A stretch of 64,000 bases of DNA from Candidatus Ryanbacteria bacterium CG10_big_fil_rev_8_21_14_0_10_43_42 (GCA_002793915.1 PFEF01000005.1:7571-71570); one strand, 5' to 3'. Shown: positions 2,708 through 51,893, numbered from the stretch's first letter. The notes: generated by a model from the sequence alone, not told the origin. A program made the numbers and translations.

Positions 2708-5143
2708 ATGATACGCGCGCGCTTTTCCTTTATGCACATACTTTTTTCTGTCGTATTTGGCGTGGGAGGTATGCTGGCGTTATTTTTTACATTCACGTAT
2801 GCACAGTCATCAGCGTGTCATCTTTTGAATTCAAGCAATCCGGTTCCGCAGGGATATGGTGCCGCATATAATTCATTTTCAACAGGAAGAGAGCTTATTG
2901 CCGAGACGTTCTGTGACAATAATACCGTATCTGTTGTGGTAGGACAAAATGAAGATCAAAGTACGGTGGCGGTATGGAAACAGGGGTGGAAATGGAACGG
3001 ATCGTCGTGGTCGGAGATAACACTTTCCGGAACGCCGTTCACGGAAGATAGTAACTGGATTTTAGGAACGGGGCGCGTATTTATTCCGAGCAGTTCTTTT
3101 TCGGAAGGAGTACATGCGGTGGCGGTATTCGCCTGTGTTCTTGAGGGGGGTAATTGGCAATGCGGGTGTCGCGATAACTCTTGCGGTACCAGTAATTGGA
3201 TGCTTCAGCAATTTGCTGTTTCCTCAACACTTCCTCCGTCACCGAGCGGATGTATAGGCGCACCGCAGGGAGTGTGCGATGCGTACGATAACGGAACGGC
3301 AACGGGTACATACTGCAAAGACGGAAATACCCGTACCGTAACGGGGGATCCGGATTATGTATTTTGGGCCGCAAACAACACTATTTACCATCGTCTTTCC
3401 GCGCATGTCTTTATTGAGGTGTCTACGGGAGAATGGGATGCCGGACAAGCGGTATGCGAATCGGTGGAAAGCGCGCTTGATGTTGGCGGCGGCGGACAGT
3501 CATGTATAGGCGCACCGCAAGGAGTGTGCGATGCGTATTTAAATGAAACGGCCACCGGTACATACTGCAAAAATGGCATAATGAGTACCGTAACAGGGAC
3601 GCCCGAATATGTATATTGGGGTGCAAATAATACTATTTATCACCGCATGGCACACAATGTATTTGCCGATGTTCCCCAAGCAGATTGGGACGTATACGAG
3701 ACAGCATGTCAGGCAGGTACGACGCCAAACGGGTGCACGGGCGCGCCACAAGGAGTATGTACGGCATATATTAATGAATCGGCAACGGGCACGTATTGCA
3801 ATGACGGCGTGGAAAGTACCGTGACGGGAGATCCGGATTATGTATATTGGGGTGGGAACGATACCATTTATCATCGTCTTTACGATAGGGTTTTTAATAC
3901 GATTTCAAAAAGCGAATGGGACGGCACGAAAGCTATTTGTGCGGCGGAAGAATCGATTGCCAACTCGATAGTGCAGTGTAAGGGCGCGCCTCAAGGAGTG
4001 TGTGATGCGTATACAAACGGCATAGCAACGGGTACATACTGTAAAGACGGAAATACCCGTACCGTAACGGGAGATCCGGATTATGTATTTTGGGCGGGGA
4101 ATAATACTATTTATTATCGTCTGGGGACTGGTTCATTCGTACCGATTTCAGAGGCGGACTGGAATGCCGGACAGGCGGCATGCGGGAATGAATCGGTGCC
4201 ACGGTGCATAGGCGCGCCTCAAGGAGTGTGTGATGCGTATACAAATGGTACAGCAACAGGCACGTATTGTACGGATGCAAGTACCCGTACCGTAACGGGA
4301 GATCCGGATTATGTATTTTGGGGTGGGAACGATACTATTTACTACCGGCTTGCCGAAGGAGTATTCATACCCGTACCGCGTTCCGAATGGGATGCCGGGC
4401 AGAGTGCCTGTGAGGCAATGGAAAGCCAGCTTTCTTTGGGTACCGCATGCGTAGGCGCTCCGCAGGAATTGTGTACAGCATACAATAATGGAACGGCAAC
4501 GGGTAATTATTGTGCGCATGGCATAATGAGTACGGTTGCGGGAGACCCTGATTATGCATACTGGGGTCCTACCGATACTATTTATTACCGTCTTGCTCAT
4601 AACGTTTTTGTTCCGGTGGCGCGCAATGAATGGGACGCATATGAACAAGCATGCCTTCTTGGTATTAATAATGAAAACAGATGTGAGGGAGCATCAAGTT
4701 TTGTGTGTGACACCTATAAGGAGGGTATCGCTACAGGAACATATTGTCGGTATGGTGCGGAAAGTACCGTAACGGGAGATCCGGATTATGTATATGACGG
4801 TTTTTCCGACACTATTCACTATCGTTTGTGGGATGGTGTGTTTGAAACAGTGTTGAGTCCTAGTTGGGCGGCGGGACAAGCGGTATGTGCGTTGGAAGAG
4901 TCGGTGCGGAATACCTATACAACATGTACGGGCGCGCCGCAAGGGGTATGTAATGCGTATAATAACGGAACGGCAACGGGTACATACTGCAAAGACGGAA
5001 ATACCCGTACCGTAACGGGGGATCCGGATTATGTATTTTGGGGCGGGAACGATACCATTTACTACCGGCTTGATAAAGGATCTTTTGCGGAAATACCCCG
5101 TGCTACCTGGGATGCATTTCAAACACAATGCGATAGTATGTAA
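2708..5143 (+). CDS. secreted repeat protein: N-terminal signal/TM + 8 tandem ~80-aa four-cysteine repeats
   Basis: 811 aa. Repeat consensus C-x-GAPQGVCDAY-N-TATGTYC-DG-RTVTGDPDYVFWGGNDTIYYRL...W-D-Q-C. Repeats 1, 4 and 8 share a ~67-nt identical DNA stretch. Confidence 0.8.
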   Translation: MIRARFSFMHILFSVVFGVGGMLALFFTFTYAQSSACHLLNSSNPVPQGYGAAYNSFSTGRELIAETFCDNNTVSVVVGQNEDQSTVAVWKQGWKWNGSSWSEITLSGTPFTEDSNWILGTGRVFIPSSSFSEGVHAVAVFACVLEGGNWQCGCRDNSCGTSNWMLQQFAVSSTLPPSPSGCIGAPQGVCDAYDNGTATGTYCKDGNTRTVTGDPDYVFWAANNTIYHRLSAHVFIEVSTGEWDAGQAVCESVESALDVGGGGQSCIGAPQGVCDAYLNETATGTYCKNGIMSTVTGTPEYVYWGANNTIYHRMAHNVFADVPQADWDVYETACQAGTTPNGCTGAPQGVCTAYINESATGTYCNDGVESTVTGDPDYVYWGGNDTIYHRLYDRVFNTISKSEWDGTKAICAAEESIANSIVQCKGAPQGVCDAYTNGIATGTYCKDGNTRTVTGDPDYVFWAGNNTIYYRLGTGSFVPISEADWNAGQAACGNESVPRCIGAPQGVCDAYTNGTATGTYCTDASTRTVTGDPDYVFWGGNDTIYYRLAEGVFIPVPRSEWDAGQSACEAMESQLSLGTACVGAPQELCTAYNNGTATGNYCAHGIMSTVAGDPDYAYWGPTDTIYYRLAHNVFVPVARNEWDAYEQACLLGINNENRCEGASSFVCDTYKEGIATGTYCRYGAESTVTGDPDYVYDGFSDTIHYRLWDGVFETVLSPSWAAGQAVCALEESVRNTYTTCTGAPQGVCNAYNNGTATGTYCKDGNTRTVTGDPDYVFWGGNDTIYYRLDKGSFAEIPRATWDAFQTQCDSM

Positions 5144-33058: not shown

Positions 33059-33151
33059 ACAGATAGTATACTATACTCTGTACTTTTTATGCCACCGTTT
33101 TTTTGTCATTGAAAAACATGAATTACCATGCTATTTTTGTACATACGTCAT

Positions 33152-33227
33152 GCCACCTTAGCTCAGCTGGTAGAGCGGTTCCTTCGTAAGGAAATGGTCC
33201 GCGGTTCGAATCCGCGAGGTGGCTCCA
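33152..33227 (+). tRNA. tRNA-Thr (anticodon CGT), CCA encoded
   Basis: GCCACCTTAGCTCAGCTGGTAGAGCG..., anticodon loop TTCGTAA, T-arm CGCGG-TTCGAAT-CCGCG, acceptor AGGTGGC-T-CCA. The final A is the A of the prfB ATG. Confidence 0.85.
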
Positions 33228-34309
33228 TGAACGATCTAAAAGAACGTCTTGTGCAGATAATGGAATCCGTTTCCCACTGGCAGGCGGGAAATATTGACAT
33301 TGCAGGAAAAAAGGAAGAAATCATTCGATTAGAGCACGAGGCAACTCTGCCGGCATTCTGGGATAATTCAGAGCATGCGGCCGAGGTGACAACTCGCATG
33401 GCTGACCTAAAGGAAGAAATAGAAATATGGGACGCATTATTCGGCGAAGCAAAAGAACTGGAAGAACTATTGGCGGTTGCCGGTGCGGATGAATCCCTGT
33501 ATGAGGAACTTACGGAAAAAATAACGGTTCTTGAAAAAAAATTAAAGGATGCCGAAATGACCCTTTTATTTGCAGGAACATATGCCCGCAAGGGTGCTAC
33601 CGTATCTATCTATGCGGGTGCGGGCGGACAGGATGCGGAAGATTGGGTGCGTCTTCTTCTTCGAATGTATCAAAAGTATGCAGAAGATAACGGATGGTCC
33701 GTAACGGAACTGCATCGGCATGAAAATGAAATGGGCGGTATTAAAAACATAACGTTTGAAATTGCGGGGAAAAACGCATACGGATATTTAAAAGGAGAGC
33801 AGGGCGTACATCGTTTGGTGCGTATTTCTCCGTTTAATGCCGATAAAAAACGACATACGTCATTTGCGTATGTAGAGATATTCCCCGACATTGATGATGC
33901 GCCTGATGTTCATATAAACGAGGATGACATCGAATACGACTTTACACGTTCCGGCGGCAAGGGCGGACAAAACGTTAACAAGCGCGAAACGGCCGTGCGG
34001 CTTACGCATAAGCCGACCGGCATTGCGGTGCGCGTGGAAACACAGCGTTCACAGGGACAAAACAAAGAACGCGCACTCAAACTTCTTCGGGCAAAACTGT
34101 ATCAGTTGCGGGAAGCATCACATAAAAAAACAATAGAAGAATTAAAAGGCGCAAAAATAGCTATAGAATGGGGGAGTCAAATTCGTTCGTATGTATTTCA
34201 TCCGTATCAGATGGTAAAGGATCATCGCACGGGCGTGGAGACGTCCCAAGTTGATGATGTCCTTGAGGGAGGGCTGGATGATTTCATTGCGGCGGAAATT
34301 CGGTTATAA
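33227..34309 (+). CDS. prfB: peptide chain release factor 2 (uninterrupted, no programmed frameshift)
   Basis: 360 aa with SPF tripeptide (RISPFNA) and GGQ motif ([11 protein letters not shown]). The ORF-track extension to 33128 reads through tRNA-Thr and is rejected. Confidence 0.9.
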
Positions 34310-36942: not shown

Positions 36943-37072
36943 GGTGTCTTGCCCGAGTGTTTGTTAACGTGCTCGAAGAGCGTCGAATTGGTAAAATAAA
37001 ATAGTTGAAAATAACCTTGCGGGGCTTGATCGACCACGGTTCTAGCTCGACTCGGCCAGCCCAAATTTTGCC

Positions 37073-37138
37073 CAAATCTTCGATTTGGATGCAAAACTTT
37101 AGGGCACTGGAGCTCCACAGAGCTTAGCGCATACATTA
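37073..37138 (+). repeat. 66-bp direct repeat, copy 1
   Basis: caaatcttcgatttggatgcaaaactttagggcactggagctccacagagcttagcgcatacatta. Differs from copy 2 at one position (c/t). Confidence 0.85.
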
Positions 37139-37263
37139 TAAAGAAACGCAGCGACTATACGATTTTGTTTACTTATAACCGAAAGGAGTTAGAAAACAAG
37201 AAGTGCCCTCGTGGTAAAAACTTCAGGTGCCAAAGCCCGCGCACGGGCGTGGTACATACCTGT

Positions 37264-37329
37264 CAAATCTTCGATTTGGATGCAAAACTTTAGGGCACTG
37301 GAGCTCCACAGAGCTTAGTGCATACATTA
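37264..37329 (+). repeat. 66-bp direct repeat, copy 2 (flanked by ggtgccaaagcccg...tacctg boxes at 37226-37262 and 37330-37360)
   Basis: 65/66 identity with copy 1. Flanking ~30-bp boxes are themselves repeated. Confidence 0.85.
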
Positions 37330-37383
37330 GGGTGCCAAAGCCCGTCGCGGCATACCTGTTGAGTGCAGTATCCAGAAAGAAAA

Positions 37384-37410
37384 ACCCACCCGCGAGGGTG
37401 GTTTTTCTTT
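37384..37410 (+). terminator. strong Rho-independent terminator closing the repeat region
   Basis: cccacccgcgagggtgg followed by TTTTTCTTTCTT. Confidence 0.7.
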
Positions 37411-37438
37411 CTTCCAAAATCAGCTATAATTTTAATTA

Positions 37439-37861
37439 ATGAAAACTGTTTCGCCGATTTCAAAGTACCTCCTTCTATTCGCTGTTCTGGCGTTCTTTCT
37501 TGTCAGTTTTTTTGGGTTGGGACATACAAACATGGCAACAGGTCCGGATGGACAAATGTCCTCAAGTAACTGCTTCATGCCCGGCATGACGGCATCGCTC
37601 TGTCAAATGAATCCATTTGAGCATATCGCCACGTGGCAGAGTATGTTCACTGCGATACCGAGTCAGAGTGATTTTGTCTTGCTTCTTTTTGCTTTACTCG
37701 CGCTTAGTGCTTTTTTCATTCGGTCATATCAGAGTATGGCCCCACCTCAAGCACTCGTCTTGTTACAACCAGTATTTGCATACTACAAACGGCGCATGCC
37801 AATAATGCATTCACTTCAAGAAGCATTCTCAAACGGCATTCTCCACCCAAAGATTTTCTAA
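37439..37861 (+). CDS. hypothetical membrane protein (Cys/Met-rich loop)
   Basis: 140 aa with two TM helices. Loop sequence SSSNCFMPGMTASLCQMNPFEH. First gene of the Dsb-containing operon. Confidence 0.5.
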   Translation: MKTVSPISKYLLLFAVLAFFLVSFFGLGHTNMATGPDGQMSSSNCFMPGMTASLCQMNPFEHIATWQSMFTAIPSQSDFVLLLFALLALSAFFIRSYQSMAPPQALVLLQPVFAYYKRRMPIMHSLQEAFSNGILHPKIF

Positions 37862-37936
37862 ATACAGCTGCTCTCGTTAGCAAAAAGCAAAGCGGTTTTT
37901 TGCCGTTTATTAATCCTTAATCATACTCAATTAATT

Positions 37937-38659
37937 ATGGAAGAATCATCAAAAACAAATATATTATCAATCCCCATAGCAATTGTCATTGCCGGAGTAC
38001 TCATTGCCGGAGCTGTTTACATGGGCACTAGTAATAAGGCGGGCATTGCAGAAAACCGGCAGCCGCAAGTTGCTGAACAACAGCAATCAGGAAATCTCGA
38101 TCAGATGGCTCCCATTACAAGCGAGGACCATATTCGCGGCAATCCGAATGCCCAAGTTATAATCGTCGAGTATTCCGATTACGAATGCCCGTTCTGTAAA
38201 GGATTCCATTTGACTATGCAGAGAATTGTTGATGAGTATGGCGACAAAGTTGCATGGGTCTATCGGCACTTTCCGCTCGATTCCATTCACTCAAAAGCGC
38301 GCTCGGAAGCGTTGGCGGCAGAGTGTGCCGCAGAGCTTGGCGGTAACGATGCTTTCTGGAAGTTTACTGATCGCTTCTTCGAGCTGACGCCGTCAAATAA
38401 TCAAACAGACACGGCTACCGTACTGCCGCAAATCGCGCGTGAGATTGGACTTAACGAACCACAGTTTGCTTCATGTCTCACAAGTGGAAGGTACGATGAC
38501 CACATTCAAGCAAATCTCGATAACGGTATTGCAACCGGCGGAAACGGTACTCCATGGAGTATTGTTGTTACAAAGAGTGGTAAAAAATACCCGCTCTCGG
38601 GCGCACAGCCGTACGCATCAGTGAAGCAGTTCATTGATCTTGCGCTCCAAGAGAAATAA
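37937..38659 (+). CDS. DsbA-family thiol:disulfide oxidoreductase (membrane-anchored)
   Basis: 240 aa. N-terminal TM helix; thioredoxin fold with CPFC active site (YSDYECPFCKGFH) and an inserted helical domain. Confidence 0.75.
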   Translation: MEESSKTNILSIPIAIVIAGVLIAGAVYMGTSNKAGIAENRQPQVAEQQQSGNLDQMAPITSEDHIRGNPNAQVIIVEYSDYECPFCKGFHLTMQRIVDEYGDKVAWVYRHFPLDSIHSKARSEALAAECAAELGGNDAFWKFTDRFFELTPSNNQTDTATVLPQIAREIGLNEPQFASCLTSGRYDDHIQANLDNGIATGGNGTPWSIVVTKSGKKYPLSGAQPYASVKQFIDLALQEK

Positions 38660-38661
38660 CT

Positions 38662-39222
38662 ATGAGCACCCATCTGCACAACATCAAACAAGCGTTTACG
38701 GAGGTGTTCGCACATACTTCCTACATCGCGCTCGCAAGCGTACTTACGCTTTTTGCGTTTGTGTTTGCAGTGTGGTTCCCGAATCTCGGACTCATCATTG
38801 ACGTATTCACCACTTCAAGTGCTCCGATAGTAGCAAAACTTAAACTCATAATGAGCTTACTTGGCGGTATCGGTACCAACTTTAGTGTGCTTTCTGCAGG
38901 ATACACAATTGCTATTGCCATTCTCTTCGGAATACTTGTCGCGATGATTGTCTATCTTATAAGGAAGAGACAAGCACAACTTGGAGGTGGCACTCTTGCT
39001 ACGGGACTTGGTGGCGTGTTCAGTGGCATCCTTGGTGTTGGATGTGCAGCTTGTGGATCCTTCCTCCTCATGACAATACTTGCTTCATTCGGAGCGACGG
39101 GTGCAATAGCGCTTCTACCACTCAAAGGAGGAGAGTTCGGTGTTGTGAGTGTCGGATTACTTGTTATATCACTTGCGATCACCGCCAGGAAAATTACTGA
39201 ACCATTAACATGCGAATCATAA
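38662..39222 (+). CDS. polytopic membrane protein with membrane-embedded CxxC (candidate DsbB/VKOR-analogous DsbA partner)
   Basis: 186 aa with 4-5 TM helices. GVGCAACGSFLL places a CxxC at a TM boundary. Starts 2 nt after the dsbA-like stop. Confidence 0.5.
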   Translation: MSTHLHNIKQAFTEVFAHTSYIALASVLTLFAFVFAVWFPNLGLIIDVFTTSSAPIVAKLKLIMSLLGGIGTNFSVLSAGYTIAIAILFGILVAMIVYLIRKRQAQLGGGTLATGLGGVFSGILGVGCAACGSFLLMTILASFGATGAIALLPLKGGEFGVVSVGLLVISLAITARKITEPLTCES

Positions 39223-39224
39223 CT

Positions 39225-39821
39225 ATGAACAAACAAACGATATTCGCTGGAACCATAGTTTTCTTGTTTATCGCGGGGGTATTCATTCTCGGAGATTCTC
39301 CTAGCGGACAAGACGAACATGGCATCAGCGGGGTTACGAAAACAGCACTTGCCGCGAAGTTCGAGGATTTATCACAAAACGGCAACTCATCTTGTTCGGG
39401 AGGATTCAAGGAATCCATAGCCGCCATGCCGTCCGAGGCACATCTCAAAGGGTCGTGCTGTTCGCCCATGAGCCTGCATCGCTACTCCGAACAAGTGGAA
39501 GGCCTGGAAAAATTCAAATCAGTTCCGGGGCAAGACATCAATCTCATTCCGAACAATCCATACGACATTGAAGTAGGACTCGCCCAAGAGTTCATCGGCT
39601 ACTACGACCTCATCCTGACGCCGGAAGAACAAGCGGCATACGACTACGCGATGCTGAACTCAAACGAAAGAGGTCCGTGCTGTTGCCAATGTTGGCGCTG
39701 GTATGTGTACGGAGGCTTGGGTAAGTACCTTATTCAAAATCACGGCTTTACTGGCGAGCAGTTGACTGAACTCTGGAATCTCTCTGACGGCTGCGGTGGA
39801 GATAGTGAGCATCGCCACTAA
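39225..39821 (+). CDS. secreted cysteine-rich protein
   Basis: 198 aa from ATG 39225. Signal/TM, then 10 Cys including CSGG, GSCCSP and GPCCCQCWRW. Confidence 0.5.
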   Translation: MNKQTIFAGTIVFLFIAGVFILGDSPSGQDEHGISGVTKTALAAKFEDLSQNGNSSCSGGFKESIAAMPSEAHLKGSCCSPMSLHRYSEQVEGLEKFKSVPGQDINLIPNNPYDIEVGLAQEFIGYYDLILTPEEQAAYDYAMLNSNERGPCCCQCWRWYVYGGLGKYLIQNHGFTGEQLTELWNLSDGCGGDSEHRH

Positions 39822-39840
39822 TACAAACTAAACAACCATT

Positions 39841-40296
39841 ATGAAAAATATACTTATCATCAGCGGTATCGCCATACTGCTTCTTGCCGGAGGGGTATGG
39901 TGGTCAAAGTCGCTCCAATCAAGCGATCCAAATGTTATCTCAACACGTGGCGTGCACTGGCATCCAGAACTGACCATCTACGTGAACGGCGAGAAGCAAG
40001 ATATTCCCCCAAACATCGGCATAGGGACGCAGTATGCATCCATGCCGACCTTCGACCAAAGCATGCGCATGACCGCTATGCACACGCACGAACCGGACGG
40101 TATCATCCATCTTGAGTTTCCCGGTCGTGTGACGCTAGAAGACACGACACTCGGCAACTTCTTCGCTATATGGGGCAAGGACATGATGAAGGACTTCGGA
40201 ACACTCACAAGCATGACCGTGAACGGAAAAGAAGCAAACGAGTTCGAGGCGTATGAAATGAAGGATGGTGATAAAATTGAGTTGAGGTACGAATAA
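39841..40296 (+). CDS. secreted Met/His-rich protein (possible periplasmic copper-binding protein)
   Basis: 151 aa with signal anchor. HWHPE...MRMTAMHTHEPDGIIHLE resembles CopC/PcoC-type Met/His motifs, but no firm family assignment. Confidence 0.4.
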   Translation: MKNILIISGIAILLLAGGVWWSKSLQSSDPNVISTRGVHWHPELTIYVNGEKQDIPPNIGIGTQYASMPTFDQSMRMTAMHTHEPDGIIHLEFPGRVTLEDTTLGNFFAIWGKDMMKDFGTLTSMTVNGKEANEFEAYEMKDGDKIELRYE

Positions 40297-40476
40297 ATCC
40301 ATGATCAAGATTCTTAATGAAAACAACGCAACGTTCTATTAGTGTGAAATCTGCGTCTATCGGTACAAAGAAAAAGAGTGGACGGAGAAATGCGAAGTGT
40401 GGCTTAAAGAGCACCACAGCTGCAATCTTGATATAACTTCTCACGCTTAAGAAAATAAATAATTTACACTCAACAA

Positions 40477-40512
40477 AAAAACCACCCTCGCATGTGGTTT
40501 TTTTGTTGATGA
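40477..40512 (+). terminator. Rho-independent terminator
   Basis: aaaaaccaccctcgcatgtggtttttttg. Confidence 0.6.
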
Positions 40513-48629: not shown

Positions 48630-49343
48630 ATGTTTGACGTATCTCTTTTTGTGGCGTTTGGTGCCGGTATTGTGTCGTTTCTTTCCCCTTGCGTGCTTCC
48701 CATTGTACCGGGATTTTTGGCTTATTTGGCAGGTTCTTCACTCGACACAGCGGATACAACTGGGCGCCGTGAAATTTTTATAAACAGCATATTTTTTGTT
48801 TTGGGGTTTTCCGTTATATTTGCTGTTTTAGGGGTAATACTAAATGGTTTTTTGCAGGCGGCAGCATATACACTGCAGGAATGGCTTTCCCGTGTAGGAG
48901 GTGCTGTTATTATTATGTTCGGCCTTTACCTTACCGGTCTTATATCCTTACCATTTCTTGAAAAATCTCATACAGTACGCGTAACAAAAACATTTCAATC
49001 GCGCTATGTAACATCCTTTGTATTTGGAACAGCATTTGCTGTAGGGTGGACACCCTGTGTAGGAGCGGCATTGGGAGTTATTCTCGGTCTAGCGGCGACT
49101 AACCCGGGAACGGCACTGTATCTTTTGTTTTCTTATGCGTTAGGGTTGGGATTGCCGTTTTTGTTGGTAGGATTTTTTGCGGCGCAAGCGGCAGGTGTTA
49201 TAAATCGGTATGCGGAAAAATTGCATTATATAACAGTTGTATTCGGCGGTATTCTTATTATTCTTGGTATTTTGGTATTTACACAGAGTCTTTCCCAGAT
49301 AGCCAATTTTGAACTTTTAAATAGATGGCTTTTACGGGAATAG
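48630..49343 (+). CDS. ccdA: cytochrome c-type biogenesis / thiol-disulfide transporter CcdA (DsbD core)
   Basis: 237 aa with 6 TM helices. LSPCVLPIVPGFLAY, plus a second Cys in GWTPCVGAALG. Confidence 0.85.
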   Translation: MFDVSLFVAFGAGIVSFLSPCVLPIVPGFLAYLAGSSLDTADTTGRREIFINSIFFVLGFSVIFAVLGVILNGFLQAAAYTLQEWLSRVGGAVIIMFGLYLTGLISLPFLEKSHTVRVTKTFQSRYVTSFVFGTAFAVGWTPCVGAALGVILGLAATNPGTALYLLFSYALGLGLPFLLVGFFAAQAAGVINRYAEKLHYITVVFGGILIILGILVFTQSLSQIANFELLNRWLLRE

Positions 49344-49374
49344 AAGTCATATATTATAAAAAATCGATAGATTC

Positions 49375-50514
49375 ATGAAACGAAAAAGCATTATAAGTAT
49401 ATTGGTTGTGGGCGCTATTATGGGCGTCATTATATTTTTGGAGTCTGGTAAAGTTGATATGGTAAAAATTCAGGATGGTCTGGGCGATCTTAATATATCA
49501 TTATTTGGCACGGACGATGATTCCTCACAGGACCGTATTCAGAAAAAACAGGAACAATATGAATTTGCAAAAGAAATTTCTACGCCTGACGGATTTATAA
49601 ATACGGATGGCAGTACAATTGAAGAGCTTATAGGAGAGAAAATTATCCTGGTTGATTTTTGGACCTATTCCTGTATTAATTGTCAGCGTACAATTCCTTA
49701 TCTTAACTCATGGCATGAAAAATATGCCGACGAAGGATTGGTCATTCTCGGTATTCATACGCCGGAATTTGAATTCGAAAAAGAATATGCAAATGTAAAA
49801 CGTGCGGTAGAACAATTTGGTATTATGTATCCGGTCATTCTTGATAATGATTTTTCTACCTGGCAATCGTACAAAAACCGCTACTGGCCGCGAAAATATC
49901 TTATTGATATAGATGGCTTTATTGTATACGATCACATTGGAGAAGGTGGATACAATGAGACGGAAGAAAAGATAGTAGAACTCTTAAATGAGCGGCGGGG
50001 CGTATTGGGAGAACAGGGGAATGTTTCCATAAATACCGCCTCTCCCGTAGGCGTTGAAAGCATTACGGACGTTCGCACACCGGAGACATATTTGGGTGCA
50101 AAACGGGTGGAATATTTGGCAAACCTCCCGTCGGAAAAATGCATAAGCATGTCATGTACGTATGAGGTCCGAGGGGAGATAGAACAAAATACATTTCAGC
50201 TACAGGGCGTATGGCAATTACGTCCCGAGGAATCTACGCTTATTTCCGGAGAAGGATCTTTATTTCTTCATTTCTTTGCCGGCAAGGTAAATGTGGTGGC
50301 GGGATCTGAAACTCCTGTTGAGGCCGAATTATATCTCGATGGAAAACGCGTTGAGGATGAATTTGCCGGTGCGCATGTAAAAAATGGATCTGTCATATTC
50401 CAAAATCACGATCTTTATAATCTTATCGATCTTAAGGGAGATGCCGGTGCTCATATTCTTGAAATCCGCGTGAAAAAATCAGGACTTTCCGCGTTTGCTT
50501 TTACGTTTGGATAA
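49375..50514 (+). CDS. TlpA/ResA-like thioredoxin-fold protein with C-terminal extension
   Basis: 379 aa. TM anchor, then ILVDFWTYSCINCQRTIP (CxxC) ...YPV..D.....W..Y....WP..YLID..G, then a ~150-aa extra domain. Confidence 0.7.
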   Translation: MKRKSIISILVVGAIMGVIIFLESGKVDMVKIQDGLGDLNISLFGTDDDSSQDRIQKKQEQYEFAKEISTPDGFINTDGSTIEELIGEKIILVDFWTYSCINCQRTIPYLNSWHEKYADEGLVILGIHTPEFEFEKEYANVKRAVEQFGIMYPVILDNDFSTWQSYKNRYWPRKYLIDIDGFIVYDHIGEGGYNETEEKIVELLNERRGVLGEQGNVSINTASPVGVESITDVRTPETYLGAKRVEYLANLPSEKCISMSCTYEVRGEIEQNTFQLQGVWQLRPEESTLISGEGSLFLHFFAGKVNVVAGSETPVEAELYLDGKRVEDEFAGAHVKNGSVIFQNHDLYNLIDLKGDAGAHILEIRVKKSGLSAFAFTFG

Positions 50515-50524
50515 GCCGTATATT

Positions 50525-51295
50525 ATGAAATTAGTATCTTGGAATGTAAATGGTCTTCGAGCCGTGCATAAACGGGAAGAATTTTTGCCGTTTTTAAGCG
50601 CGATAAAACCGAACATACTCTGTTTGCAGGAAACAAAGGCGCATCCTGATCAATTGCCAAAGGAGCTCACGGAAATTCCCGGGTATTATGCTTACTTTGC
50701 ATCTTCTGAGGTAAAAAAAGGATATAGCGGAGTAGCTTTATATACAAAACGAGAGCCAAAACGTATAAATACAAAGTTGGGAATTTCCAAATTTGACGAA
50801 GAAGGACGTATGATAGAAGTGGAATATGACGACTTTATGTTGTTCACGGTATATTTTCCGAATGGCGGCCAGGGTTCGCACCGGATCGAATACAAACTTG
50901 AGTTCTATGATGCATTTCTTTCATACATAGAAAAATTACGGAAGAAAGGGAAAAATATTATTTTCTGTGGGGATGTAAATACGGCGCATGAAGCAATTGA
51001 TTTGGCGCGCCCGAAAGAAAACGAAAAAAATACCGGCTTTCTGCCAGAGGAACGCGCCTGGTTGGATGAGCTTGCGGCGCAGGGATACATTGATACATAT
51101 CGGCATTTTAATCCGGAAAAGACGGGGGCGTACACGTATTGGGATATGAAAACATTTGCTCGCGACCGCAATGTTGGCTGGCGGATCGATTATTTTTTTA
51201 CCCATGCCACCTATATGAAGAATGTAAAAAAAGCAGATATCCTCGCAAATATCTACGGCTCGGACCACTGTCCGGTGACATTAGAGCTTATATAA
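50525..51295 (+). CDS. xth: exodeoxyribonuclease III
   Basis: 256 aa. [27 protein letters not shown]. Confidence 0.9.
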
Positions 51296-51410
51296 TTATT
51301 TTTTCTTTGTCATACATTTAAAAAGATATAATTTTGCATGTTATGGTGTTGGGGAGGTGATTTTTTGGAATCGCCTTTTTTATTTTCCTCATACGCGATA
51401 TATTTTATAT

Positions 51411-51893
51411 ATGAAAAATAATTTAAAAATAGCCACTTTCGGCGCGGGATGCTTTTGGGGTGTGGAGGCGGCATTTCGGAAAATAAAAGGTATAGAGGAT
51501 ACGGCTGTGGGATATATGGGCGGGAAGACGGAAAATCCGACATATGAGGATGTGTGCGGCAACACAACGGGACATGCCGAGGTGGTGCAAATAGAGTATG
51601 ATCCGGAGATTGTTTCTTATAAAGAGCTCTTGGACGTATTTTGGAAGATTCATAACCCCACAACGATGAATCGCCAGGGACCGGATATCGGTTCGCAGTA
51701 TCGATCGGTCATCTTTTTTCATACGCCGGAACAGGAAGCTATGGCGTGCGCATCAAAGCATGCACTTAGCGAATCTCATGCGTATGACGATCCGGTTGTA
51801 ACGGAGGTTGTGCCTGCGGACGTATTTTATAGGGCAGAGGAATACCATCAGCGTTATTTTGAAAAAAATGGCGGAGGAACGTGCCATATATAA
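51411..51893 (+). CDS. msrA: peptide methionine sulfoxide reductase MsrA
   Basis: 160 aa from ATG 51411. [15 protein letters not shown] catalytic Cys motif. HQRYFEKN is also present. Confidence 0.9.

Follow-up and report, generated by a model that had tools for sequence, protein, structure and literature searches.

A DsbA-type oxidoreductase gene paired with an undescribed family of membrane proteins in a Candidatus Ryanbacteria cassette

Which membrane protein serves a DsbA-type oxidoreductase when none of its familiar partners is encoded nearby? The question is raised by a 64-kb stretch of a Candidatus Ryanbacteria genome (Patescibacteria, also called the candidate phyla radiation or CPR), referred to here as the window. 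It carries a cassette of five open reading frames (ORF1 to ORF5) on the + strand, in which the gene for a DsbA-type protein, ORF2, is followed directly by ORF3, a gene for a small membrane protein with a CxxC motif; neither DsbB nor VKOR is encoded in the 64-kb window. In the literature covered here, DsbB and VKOR were the only DsbA-regenerating enzymes named before 2026 (PMC11208910). A 2026 preprint adds MauE to them, finds none of the three in about 20% of bacterial species and expects further oxidative-folding pathways (bioRxiv 10.64898/2026.03.05.709764). What we find at this locus is a Dsb-type pair with a non-homologous membrane component.

ORF2 is a membrane-anchored DsbA-type protein

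The five ORFs, which lie between two terminator-like hairpins, were recovered on the + strand exactly where an earlier note on this DNA had placed them, together with the motifs it had quoted: CPFC in ORF2 (C84/C87), CAAC in ORF3 (C128/C131), GPCCCQCWRW in ORF4 and MRMTAMHTHEPDG in ORF5. They are genuine genes and not chance ORFs, because ORF3, ORF4 and ORF5 have many database relatives (988, 1825 and 328, respectively, at E ≤ 1e-3) and ORF2 passes the Pfam cut-offs. The spacing between ORF2 and ORF3 is 2 nt, as that note had read it.

ORF2 (37937..38659, +) encodes 240 amino acids and scores 78.1 bits against Thioredoxin_4 (cut-off 23.2; 1.2e-21) and 58.3 bits against DSBA (cut-off 25.6; 1.2e-15). 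It has an N-terminal hydrophobic anchor without a lipobox cysteine, and both the CxxC and the cis-Pro loop are present, which agrees with its earlier description as a membrane-anchored DsbA. The closest solved structure is PaDsbA2 of Pseudomonas aeruginosa (PDB 4N30, E = 6.9e-15), followed by structures of BdbD, Wolbachia alpha-DsbA1 and ScsC, the matches to ScsC being weak (4gxz, 6nen and 6mhh, E 6e-4 to 5e-6). Among 61 CPFC-type relatives, C84 and C87 are 100% conserved and a second pair, C130/C180, is 95% conserved. The second pair aligns with C111/C157 of 4N30, and the G-T-P loop of ORF2, in which Thr precedes the cis-Pro, aligns with Thr183-cisPro of PaDsbA2.

The alpha-DsbA class is defined by four cysteines (those of the active site and of a disulfide in the helical domain) together with Thr-cisPro; PaDsbA2, with an E0' of -67.5 mV, has been called "one of the most oxidizing", and its extra disulfide controls the potential (PMC3870256). 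Judged by these features, ORF2 belongs to the four-cysteine alpha-DsbA/PaDsbA2 class, and since it shares the features of that class we infer that it is a strong thiol oxidase. A potential of the PaDsbA2 type is so oxidizing that the protein would be a poor reductant and would need an oxidant.

ORF3 represents a large family without a name

ORF3 (38662..39222, +) encodes 186 amino acids, and its product is 100% identical to an NCBI hypothetical protein of the same organism. The 988 relatives came from an indexed search and are all unnamed and without Pfam domains; an exhaustive profile search put the family at 1433 cluster representatives (clustered at 50% identity). Across an alignment of 63 sequences, whose mean identity is 37%, residues C128, C131, P153, G156 and E158 are invariant, and Y21, N41, several glycines of the third transmembrane helix (TM3) and C184 are at least 90% conserved. 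The cysteines form an invariant GxGC128xxC131G motif, and P153, G156 and E158 are found at the outer end of TM4.

An AlphaFold 2 (AF2) model built on this alignment has a mean predicted local distance difference test score (pLDDT) of 86.9 and a predicted template modelling score (pTM) of 0.79; it replaced a first, poor model based on 23 sequences (pLDDT 61). The model has long helices at residues 19-51, 76-107, 109-142 and 157-179, with the CxxC inside the third. Lysine plus arginine come to 2.4 at the N-terminus, 3.6 in the 100-110 loop and 2.5 at the C-terminus, and to 1.4 and 0.4 in the other two loops, giving totals of 8.4 inside versus 1.8 outside. In addition, one family member (P0363, 381 amino acids) carries a C-terminal fusion to an S-adenosylmethionine (SAM)-dependent methyltransferase (Methyltransf_25, 1.7e-8). 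The charge distribution and the methyltransferase fusion both put the two ends of the four-helix protein in the cytoplasm (N-in/C-in). In this topology the CxxC and E158 sit in the outward half of the membrane, with C184 inside the cell.

These results alter the picture of ORF3 with which we started. The earlier note had counted four or five TM segments, where AF2 gives four helices, and had set the CxxC at a membrane boundary, where the model and the topology put it inside TM3. It had also named the CAAC as the only cysteine pair and missed C184: the C-terminal cysteine is present in 240 of the 248 full-length members that carry GxGCxxC. That note had further proposed that its reading would fall if the CxxC varied among orthologues or if the protein proved to be a relative of a transporter family; the CxxC is invariant, and ORF3 matches no transporter family.

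Comparison of ORF3 with known cysteine-bearing membrane proteins

When ORF3 and its distant relatives were compared with Pfam and NCBIfam, no model matched. A sequence search of the PDB returned nothing for ORF3, and a Foldseek search of the PDB with the ORF3 model gave no match (best E = 2, template modelling score ≤ 0.34). We then took five families of cysteine-bearing membrane proteins in turn. ORF3 shares with DsbB its four TM helices and the cytoplasmic location of both termini. It matches neither PF02600 nor NCBIfam models of DsbB, however, and hhalign against the DsbB proteins of related loci gives a probability of 0.2%. The two outward-facing cysteine pairs of DsbB are also missing: 204 of the 248 members have exactly three cysteines, namely the CxxC in TM3 and a single cytoplasmic one. 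For VKOR there is no Pfam match, no fold match by Foldseek in the PDB and no cysteine pair in a loop. The earlier claim that ORF3 is neither a DsbB nor a VKOR is thereby upheld.

MauE was rejected for want of a Pfam match (E ≤ 0.1 to 1) and because the ORF3 motif is a CxxC inside TM3 and not a CXC in a loop. There was likewise no Pfam match to CcdA/DsbD_TM (PF02683, PF13386), and hhalign of ORF3 against the CcdA proteins from the window and from related loci gave a probability of 0.2%. Homology to MerC, suggested by a GCAAC...LASFGA likeness, reached an hhalign probability of 31% over 33 columns with close relatives and fell to 8.6% over 10 columns with a deep alignment. Authentic MerC scores 90.8 bits on PF03203, a model that no ORF3-family member matches; the GCAAC motif in a TM helix and the single C-terminal cysteine make ORF3 MerC-like at the level of the motif only. 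By all of these comparisons ORF3 appears to belong to none of the DsbB, VKOR, MauE, CcdA/DsbD and MerC families. A search of the literature on the ORF3 family, on DsbA in Patescibacteria and on copper-linked DsbA partners found no description of it.

A DsbA gene precedes ORF3 in bacteria and in an archaeon

Related loci were collected from GTDB species representatives (80 loci) and from three further look-ups, and pairing was counted in the 71 non-redundant loci in which ORF calling recovered an ORF3 homologue; these locus counts are lower bounds, as they depend on simple ORF calling and BLAST thresholds. A DsbA-like gene lies directly 5' of the ORF3 homologue in 59 of the 71 loci, and 54 of these 59 DsbA proteins carry CPFC. 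The commonest distances between the two genes are 2 nt (22 loci), -4 nt (7 loci) and 3 nt (7 loci). Since genomes hold only a handful of DsbA genes, this adjacency is not due to chance.

Occurrences of the pair extend over Patescibacteria, Burkholderiales and Halobacteria. The presence of the ORF3 family in Halobacteria emerged from a tblastn search of plasmids. On plasmid NZ_CP044526.1 of Halorussus halophilus (locus L088, 4698-7477), a DsbA-like gene overlaps a full-length ORF3-family gene by 4 nt. The former encodes a thioredoxin-domain lipoprotein with CAIC and Thr-cisPro, and the product of the latter aligns with ORF3 at an hhalign probability of 99.8%, with all three cysteines in register. 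A gene beside this pair encodes a "MoaD/ThiS family" protein that resembles ORF5 in its C-terminal half (probability 87%). Plasmids of Haladaptatus, Natrononativus and Halalkalicoccus carry ORF3-like genes or fragments, and no metal genes were seen near the haloarchaeal loci.

The DsbA-ORF3 pair is thus the conserved core of the cassette. The proposal that ORF3 is dedicated to DsbA gains from the position of a DsbA gene directly 5' of it in most loci, an arrangement that extends to an archaeon, and ORF3 is in our judgement very probably a functional partner of ORF2. One could argue that ORF3 is instead a client of DsbA, or has an unrelated membrane function, for instance as a redox-gated channel whose CxxC is oxidized by DsbA or as an assembly factor for ORF4 or ORF5, and accompanies DsbA on that account. 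Consistent with such a role, in about 10 loci ORF3 occurs together with ORF4 or ORF5 and no DsbA gene adjoins it, an ORF4 homologue directly follows the ORF3 homologue in 23 loci, and the Natrononativus plasmid carries ORF3 alone. However, the near-universal, tight adjacency of DsbA and ORF3 in two domains of life, combined with an invariant CxxC, is the pattern of an enzyme and its partner, and we consider a client or unrelated role quite improbable.

The related loci also show how the pair stands to DsbB, which coexists with an ORF3 homologue in 10 loci. A second DsbA, of the CEAC type, always adjoins a bona fide DsbB. In L047, L050, L054, L062 and L080 (CEAC DsbA and DsbB at ~8.5-9.6 kb), in L058 (~4.9-6.0 kb) and in L077, a CPFC DsbA stands directly 5' of ORF3 at the same time, so that there are two parallel pairs. 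The same adjacency of CEAC DsbA and DsbB is seen in L079 and L085, where the DsbA next to ORF3 is itself of the CEAC type. In locus L004, from Yanofskybacteria, three genes follow one another, for a single DsbA (CPAC), a bona fide DsbB and an ORF3 homologue.

Proposed direction of thiol-disulfide exchange

How might the two proteins work together? We propose that ORF2 and ORF3 form a dedicated thiol-disulfide exchange pair, probably translationally coupled. Membrane-tethered ORF2 would introduce disulfides into exported proteins, among which the neighbouring eight-cysteine ORF4 would be the obvious client, and ORF3 would serve as a non-homologous functional analogue of DsbB, VKOR or MauE. The CxxC of ORF3, in the outer leaflet beside the invariant Glu, would accept electrons from reduced ORF2 and hand them to a membrane or external acceptor, which may be quinone or O2/Cu(II). 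ORF1 (with its Cys/Met/His loop), ORF4 and ORF5 (with four His) would be exported accessories, probably metal-binding, and the cassette as a whole may be a mobile envelope-protection module that usually travels with copper-efflux and copper-oxidation genes. Taken in full, with ORF3 re-oxidizing ORF2, this proposal is one we hold tentatively, at somewhat under an even chance.

The oxidative direction is favoured for several reasons. ORF2 is of an extremely oxidizing class; the CxxC of ORF3 is predicted to face outwards in the membrane, beside E158, which is invariant; where both types of DsbA occur, the CEAC protein sits with DsbB while the CPFC protein stays with ORF3; and the genome already has a reductive cluster. 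The latter (48630-51893, +) begins 8 kb downstream of the cassette and encodes CcdA (DsbD_TM, 6e-17), a Redoxin/Thioredoxin_10 protein, a phosphatase-family protein and MsrA, and it therefore provides the genome with a separate reductant system. MauE offers a precedent in the same direction: its one CXC pair is enough for it to stand in for DsbB in E. coli (bioRxiv 10.64898/2026.03.05.709764), so a second cysteine pair is not obligatory.

Several observations weigh against re-oxidation of ORF2 by ORF3. A DsbB-like cycle has no use for the near-invariant cytoplasmic C184, which suggests a link to the cytoplasm. In L004, with DsbA, DsbB and ORF3 in a row, ORF3 would be redundant if it were a DsbB analogue, and the loci that pair ORF3 with ORF4 or ORF5 alone have no DsbA next to it to be re-oxidized. 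ORF3 has no loop cysteine pair to shuttle electrons from the soluble DsbA domain, and a buried CxxC is sterically awkward for this purpose. Quinones are generally considered absent from Patescibacteria. Finally, the association with copper genes described below fits a role in metal handling at least as well.

The cytoplasmic cysteine raises the possibility that electrons flow the other way. ORF3 could be a reductive transmembrane cysteine relay akin to ScsB, DsbD or CcdA, passing cytoplasmic reducing power through C184 to the CxxC of TM3, so that ORF2, and through it ORF4, would be kept reduced, either to repair copper-induced mis-oxidation or to bind Cu(I). The C-terminal cysteine found in 240 of 248 members would be accounted for in this way, as would the coexistence of ORF3 with DsbB in 10 loci and, in L004, with a DsbB and only one DsbA. 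Where thioredoxin-fold proteins of copper islands have been characterized, all function when reduced and have a membrane reductant beside them, and two cysteine motifs of ORF4, CC and CCCxC, are reminiscent of Cu(I)-thiolate sites. On the other hand, a protein of the PaDsbA2 class (-67.5 mV for PaDsbA2) is thermodynamically a poor reductant, and ORF2 has no oligomerization domain of the isomerase type. C184 and the CxxC are on opposite sides of the membrane, without a second membrane cysteine such as CcdA and DsbD have; ORF3 has no homology to DsbD_TM; and both the window and the Burkholderiales islands have a CcdA or DsbD of their own, along with TlpA-like redoxins. For these reasons we regard a reductive relay as unlikely.

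Copper genes and mobile elements around the pair

The neighbourhood of the pair was surveyed in 77 loci, in which a P-type ATPase was looked for within 8 kb. A cluster of ~700-amino acid P-type (P1B) ATPases is present within this distance in 38 of the 77 loci, a multicopper oxidase in 15, CsoR in 11 and a serine recombinase in 9; CusRS, MerR, SCO1 and YHS are further neighbours in relatives. A 603-kb metagenomic contig has all five cassette genes, preceded by CsoR and a CPH-type P1B-ATPase and followed by a multicopper oxidase and a serine recombinase. In Burkholderiales the pair is next to CusRS, or in an island with an HMA-ATPase, a MerR regulator, SCO1 and cytochrome c that also holds TlpA-like redoxins, a multicopper oxidase and parts of DsbD. 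The association with copper is strong in bacteria but not universal.

The earlier note had suspected a copper-handling cassette on a horizontally acquired segment. In relatives the suggestion holds, with P1B-ATPases, CsoR, CusRS, multicopper oxidases and serine recombinases adjoining the pair; the window itself holds none of these genes. The case for mobility rests on the relatives, because the compositional signals are weak. The cassette has a GC content of 47.2% versus 43.9% for the window, and the GC skew, which is positive over most of the window, takes values of -0.083, -0.008 and +0.018 at 37-40 kb. A tRNA-Gln gene lies 1.2 kb upstream, and a search for a tRNA-Gln-derived att repeat flanking the cassette found none. 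High-GC Burkholderiales contigs carry the pair at the GC content of their host.

These neighbours bring in another explanation, in which the pair would pass metal rather than electrons. As in MerP-MerT or MerC, Cu(I) or Ag(I) would move from the CPFC thiolates of ORF2 to the CxxC of ORF3 and on to C184, or in the reverse direction, and ORF1, ORF4 and ORF5 would be extracytoplasmic metal buffers. An exported CxxC protein, a TM CxxC and a cytoplasmic cysteine do parallel the mer transport systems, GCAAC is shared with TM1 of MerC (the 31% over 33 columns noted above), the Patescibacteria/Burkholderiales family is mostly found in metal islands such as those with P1B-ATPases, and the cassette products are all rich in Cys, Met or His ligands. 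Metal transfer would also account for the coexistence of ORF3 with both DsbB and DsbD systems. The MerC likeness, however, shrinks to 10 columns with the deeper alignment and has no support in Pfam, no DsbA-fold protein is known to pass metal to a transporter, and the haloarchaeal loci have no metal genes nearby. Copper import would make little sense on a resistance island without a cytoplasmic detoxifying enzyme, and among 150 listed ORF3-family representatives none is long enough for a fused HMA domain, the one methyltransferase fusion apart. A metal relay is in our view improbable.

Relation to known redox systems

Re-oxidation of ORF2 by ORF3 remains the reading that we prefer, and by function the closest systems would be DsbA-DsbB, DsbL-DsbI (the second pair of E. 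coli) and MauE; for the copper context, ScsC/ScsB would be closest. DsbA-DsbB and DsbL-DsbI likewise consist of an exported DsbA-fold oxidase beside a four-TM, N-in/C-in protein with an outward CxxC, and the occurrence of two parallel pairs within one locus in some relatives is a further likeness. The CPFC dipeptide of ORF2 matches DsbL. ORF3 differs from DsbB in lacking any sequence, profile or fold similarity to it and in having one outward cysteine pair, located inside TM3 instead of in loops, together with an extra conserved cytoplasmic cysteine. PaDsbA2 (4N30) has CPFC, the second structural cysteine pair and the Thr before cis-Pro in common with ORF2, but it is periplasmic and soluble, is re-oxidized in vitro by DsbB1 or DsbB2 and has no described ORF3-like neighbour, whereas ORF2 is TM-anchored and paired with ORF3.

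MauE is also a small multi-TM protein with a single cysteine pair that can re-oxidize DsbA, and it has a conserved Glu and Lys in its TM helices (bioRxiv 10.64898/2026.03.05.709764). Its CXC is in the TM3-TM4 loop, however, unlike the CxxC inside TM3 of ORF3, and ORF3, with no Pfam match at all, is not a member of the MauE family. ScsC/ScsB (PMC10907172) is similarly a horizontally acquired Dsb-like pair, linked to copper stress and found alongside canonical Dsb systems, and ORF2 matches ScsC weakly; ScsB is a DsbD homologue, which ORF3 is not, and ScsC is kept reduced, whereas ORF2 looks like a strong oxidase. With MerC and MerT-MerP, ORF3 shares the GCAAC in a TM helix, the cytoplasmic C-terminal cysteine and an exported CxxC protein alongside; homology is unsupported, no mer genes are nearby, and the partner has a DsbA fold and not an HMA fold. 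VKOR and CcdA/DsbD_TM also have TM-embedded cysteines that exchange electrons with thioredoxin-fold partners outside, but ORF3 has no Pfam or fold match to them, and the number and placement of the cysteines differ.

The ORF3 family is large, has no family model and is encoded 3' of DsbA in bacteria and archaea, which makes it a testable candidate for a missing oxidative-folding pathway; Halorussus halophilus is a cultured host of the pair. That it constitutes a further class of DsbA-regenerating membrane enzymes, non-homologous to DsbB, VKOR and MauE, spread by mobile elements in Patescibacteria, Burkholderiales and Halobacteria and perhaps able to work without quinones, seems to us doubtful as a whole, though worth stating. 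In such a quinone-free case the electrons might end up on O2 or Cu(II), perhaps by way of the four-His ORF5, which is fused to DsbA domains in some loci. Alternatively, the family may represent a new kind of cysteine relay under copper stress.

Accessory genes of the cassette

Around the conserved core, ORF1, ORF4 and ORF5 occur in 23, 23 and 26 related loci, respectively, in the same gene order as here. All three appear from their sequences to be variable accessories, without family models, and carry plausible copper ligands as far as residue composition goes. ORF1 (37439..37861, +) encodes a 140-amino acid membrane protein with two TM segments, and its 23 homologues head related cassettes. 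It matches no family in Pfam or NCBIfam. In a 23-sequence alignment, its exposed loop reads C-x9-C-x-M-N-P-x-E-H-I-x-x-W-Q-x-M-F and its C-terminus AFSxGILxPKIF.

ORF4 (39225..39821, +) encodes an anchored exported protein with a C-terminal His-rich tail. The 13-nt overlap with ORF3 that had been reported is a product of taking the longest ORF (39210-39821, 203 amino acids); homologues and the NCBI model start at MNKQT, at 39225, which leaves a 2-nt gap behind the ORF3 stop, the same spacing as between ORF2 and ORF3. We count 8 cysteines in ORF4, all invariant, in place of the 10 given before: C62, CC83-84, CCCxC157-161 and C195 (numbered from the longest ORF). Comparisons with Pfam, including aligned relatives, and with the PDB gave only noise, a microplusin match (E = 0.39) being at chance level. 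The eight cysteines would fit four disulfides, as in a DsbA client, or Cu(I)-thiolate clusters.

ORF5 (39841..40296, +; 151 amino acids) is likewise predicted to be anchored and exported and has four invariant His, as HxH at 39-41 and HxH at 81-83. Its C-terminal segment is beta-grasp-like, with weak matches to DUF4430 and ThiS; a sequence search of the PDB gave nothing, and a Pfam scan of aligned ORF5 relatives gave only noise. In three loci an ORF5-like domain is fused to a CEAC/CEVC-type DsbA with an extra Cys-rich tail, in proteins of 397-401 amino acids encoded directly after the ORF3 homologue (L041 8560-9765, L061 8585-9778 and L063 2493-3686).

The unit does not end with ORF5 at 40296, as had been supposed, but extends through a decayed sixth gene and a hairpin. 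The sixth gene (40301..40450, +) was read against intact homologues, which follow the cassette in at least 12 related loci and encode a cytosolic Cys-rich protein of ~49 amino acids with the pattern CxxC...CxxWCxxHxxC (M.K..YQCEECgf.Y...wAekCEaWCkEHqSCNiEI). In the window copy a TAG interrupts the frame where the homologues have a conserved Gln, and one cysteine is missing (WC to WL); because of these two changes it is probably a pseudogene, the alternative being a sequencing error. The small protein is assigned to no family. The intrinsic terminator-like hairpin at 40470..40509 (+), with 16 pairs and a T-run, closes the unit.

Flanking sequences and other features of the window

Upstream of ORF1 is an element (GCATACCTGTTGAGTGCAGTATCCAG) at 37342..37401 (+), followed by an A-run, a GC hairpin (37386-37401) and a T-run; it ends ~35 nt 5' of the ORF1 start, and a TATAAT is found at 37424-37429. 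A 35-49 nt part of it (GCATACCTGCTGAGTGCAGTATCCAG...) is conserved as DNA 5' of the ORF1 homologues of L054 (6339-6373), L062 (6657-6704), L050 (6652-6699) and L080 (6351-6372). The element is kept although the proteins are only 30-60% identical, and the stems of the hairpins vary in sequence from locus to locus. Its possible roles are those of a regulatory site (operator), an attenuator, a terminator or a recombination site.

The 0.5 kb 5' of the operon (36943-37438) is non-coding, and its folding is much stronger than that of shuffled sequences (z = -5.1). Two repeats occur in it: one direct, of 66 nt (37073-37138 and 37264-37329, 98% identical), the other short, GGTGCCAAAGCCCG...CATACCTGT, at 37227-37263 and 37331-37360. 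Rfam assigned no family to this 0.5 kb and gave sub-threshold, terminator-like matches only; the region could be a tandem duplication, a small RNA or a leader.

Elsewhere in the window, an 811-amino acid ORF at 2708-5143 (+) matches no Pfam family at E ≤ 1e-5. At 33128-34309 (+) is a prfB-like release-factor ORF whose longest form begins inside tRNA-Thr (33152-33227); its true start is likely downstream, near MNDLKERL.

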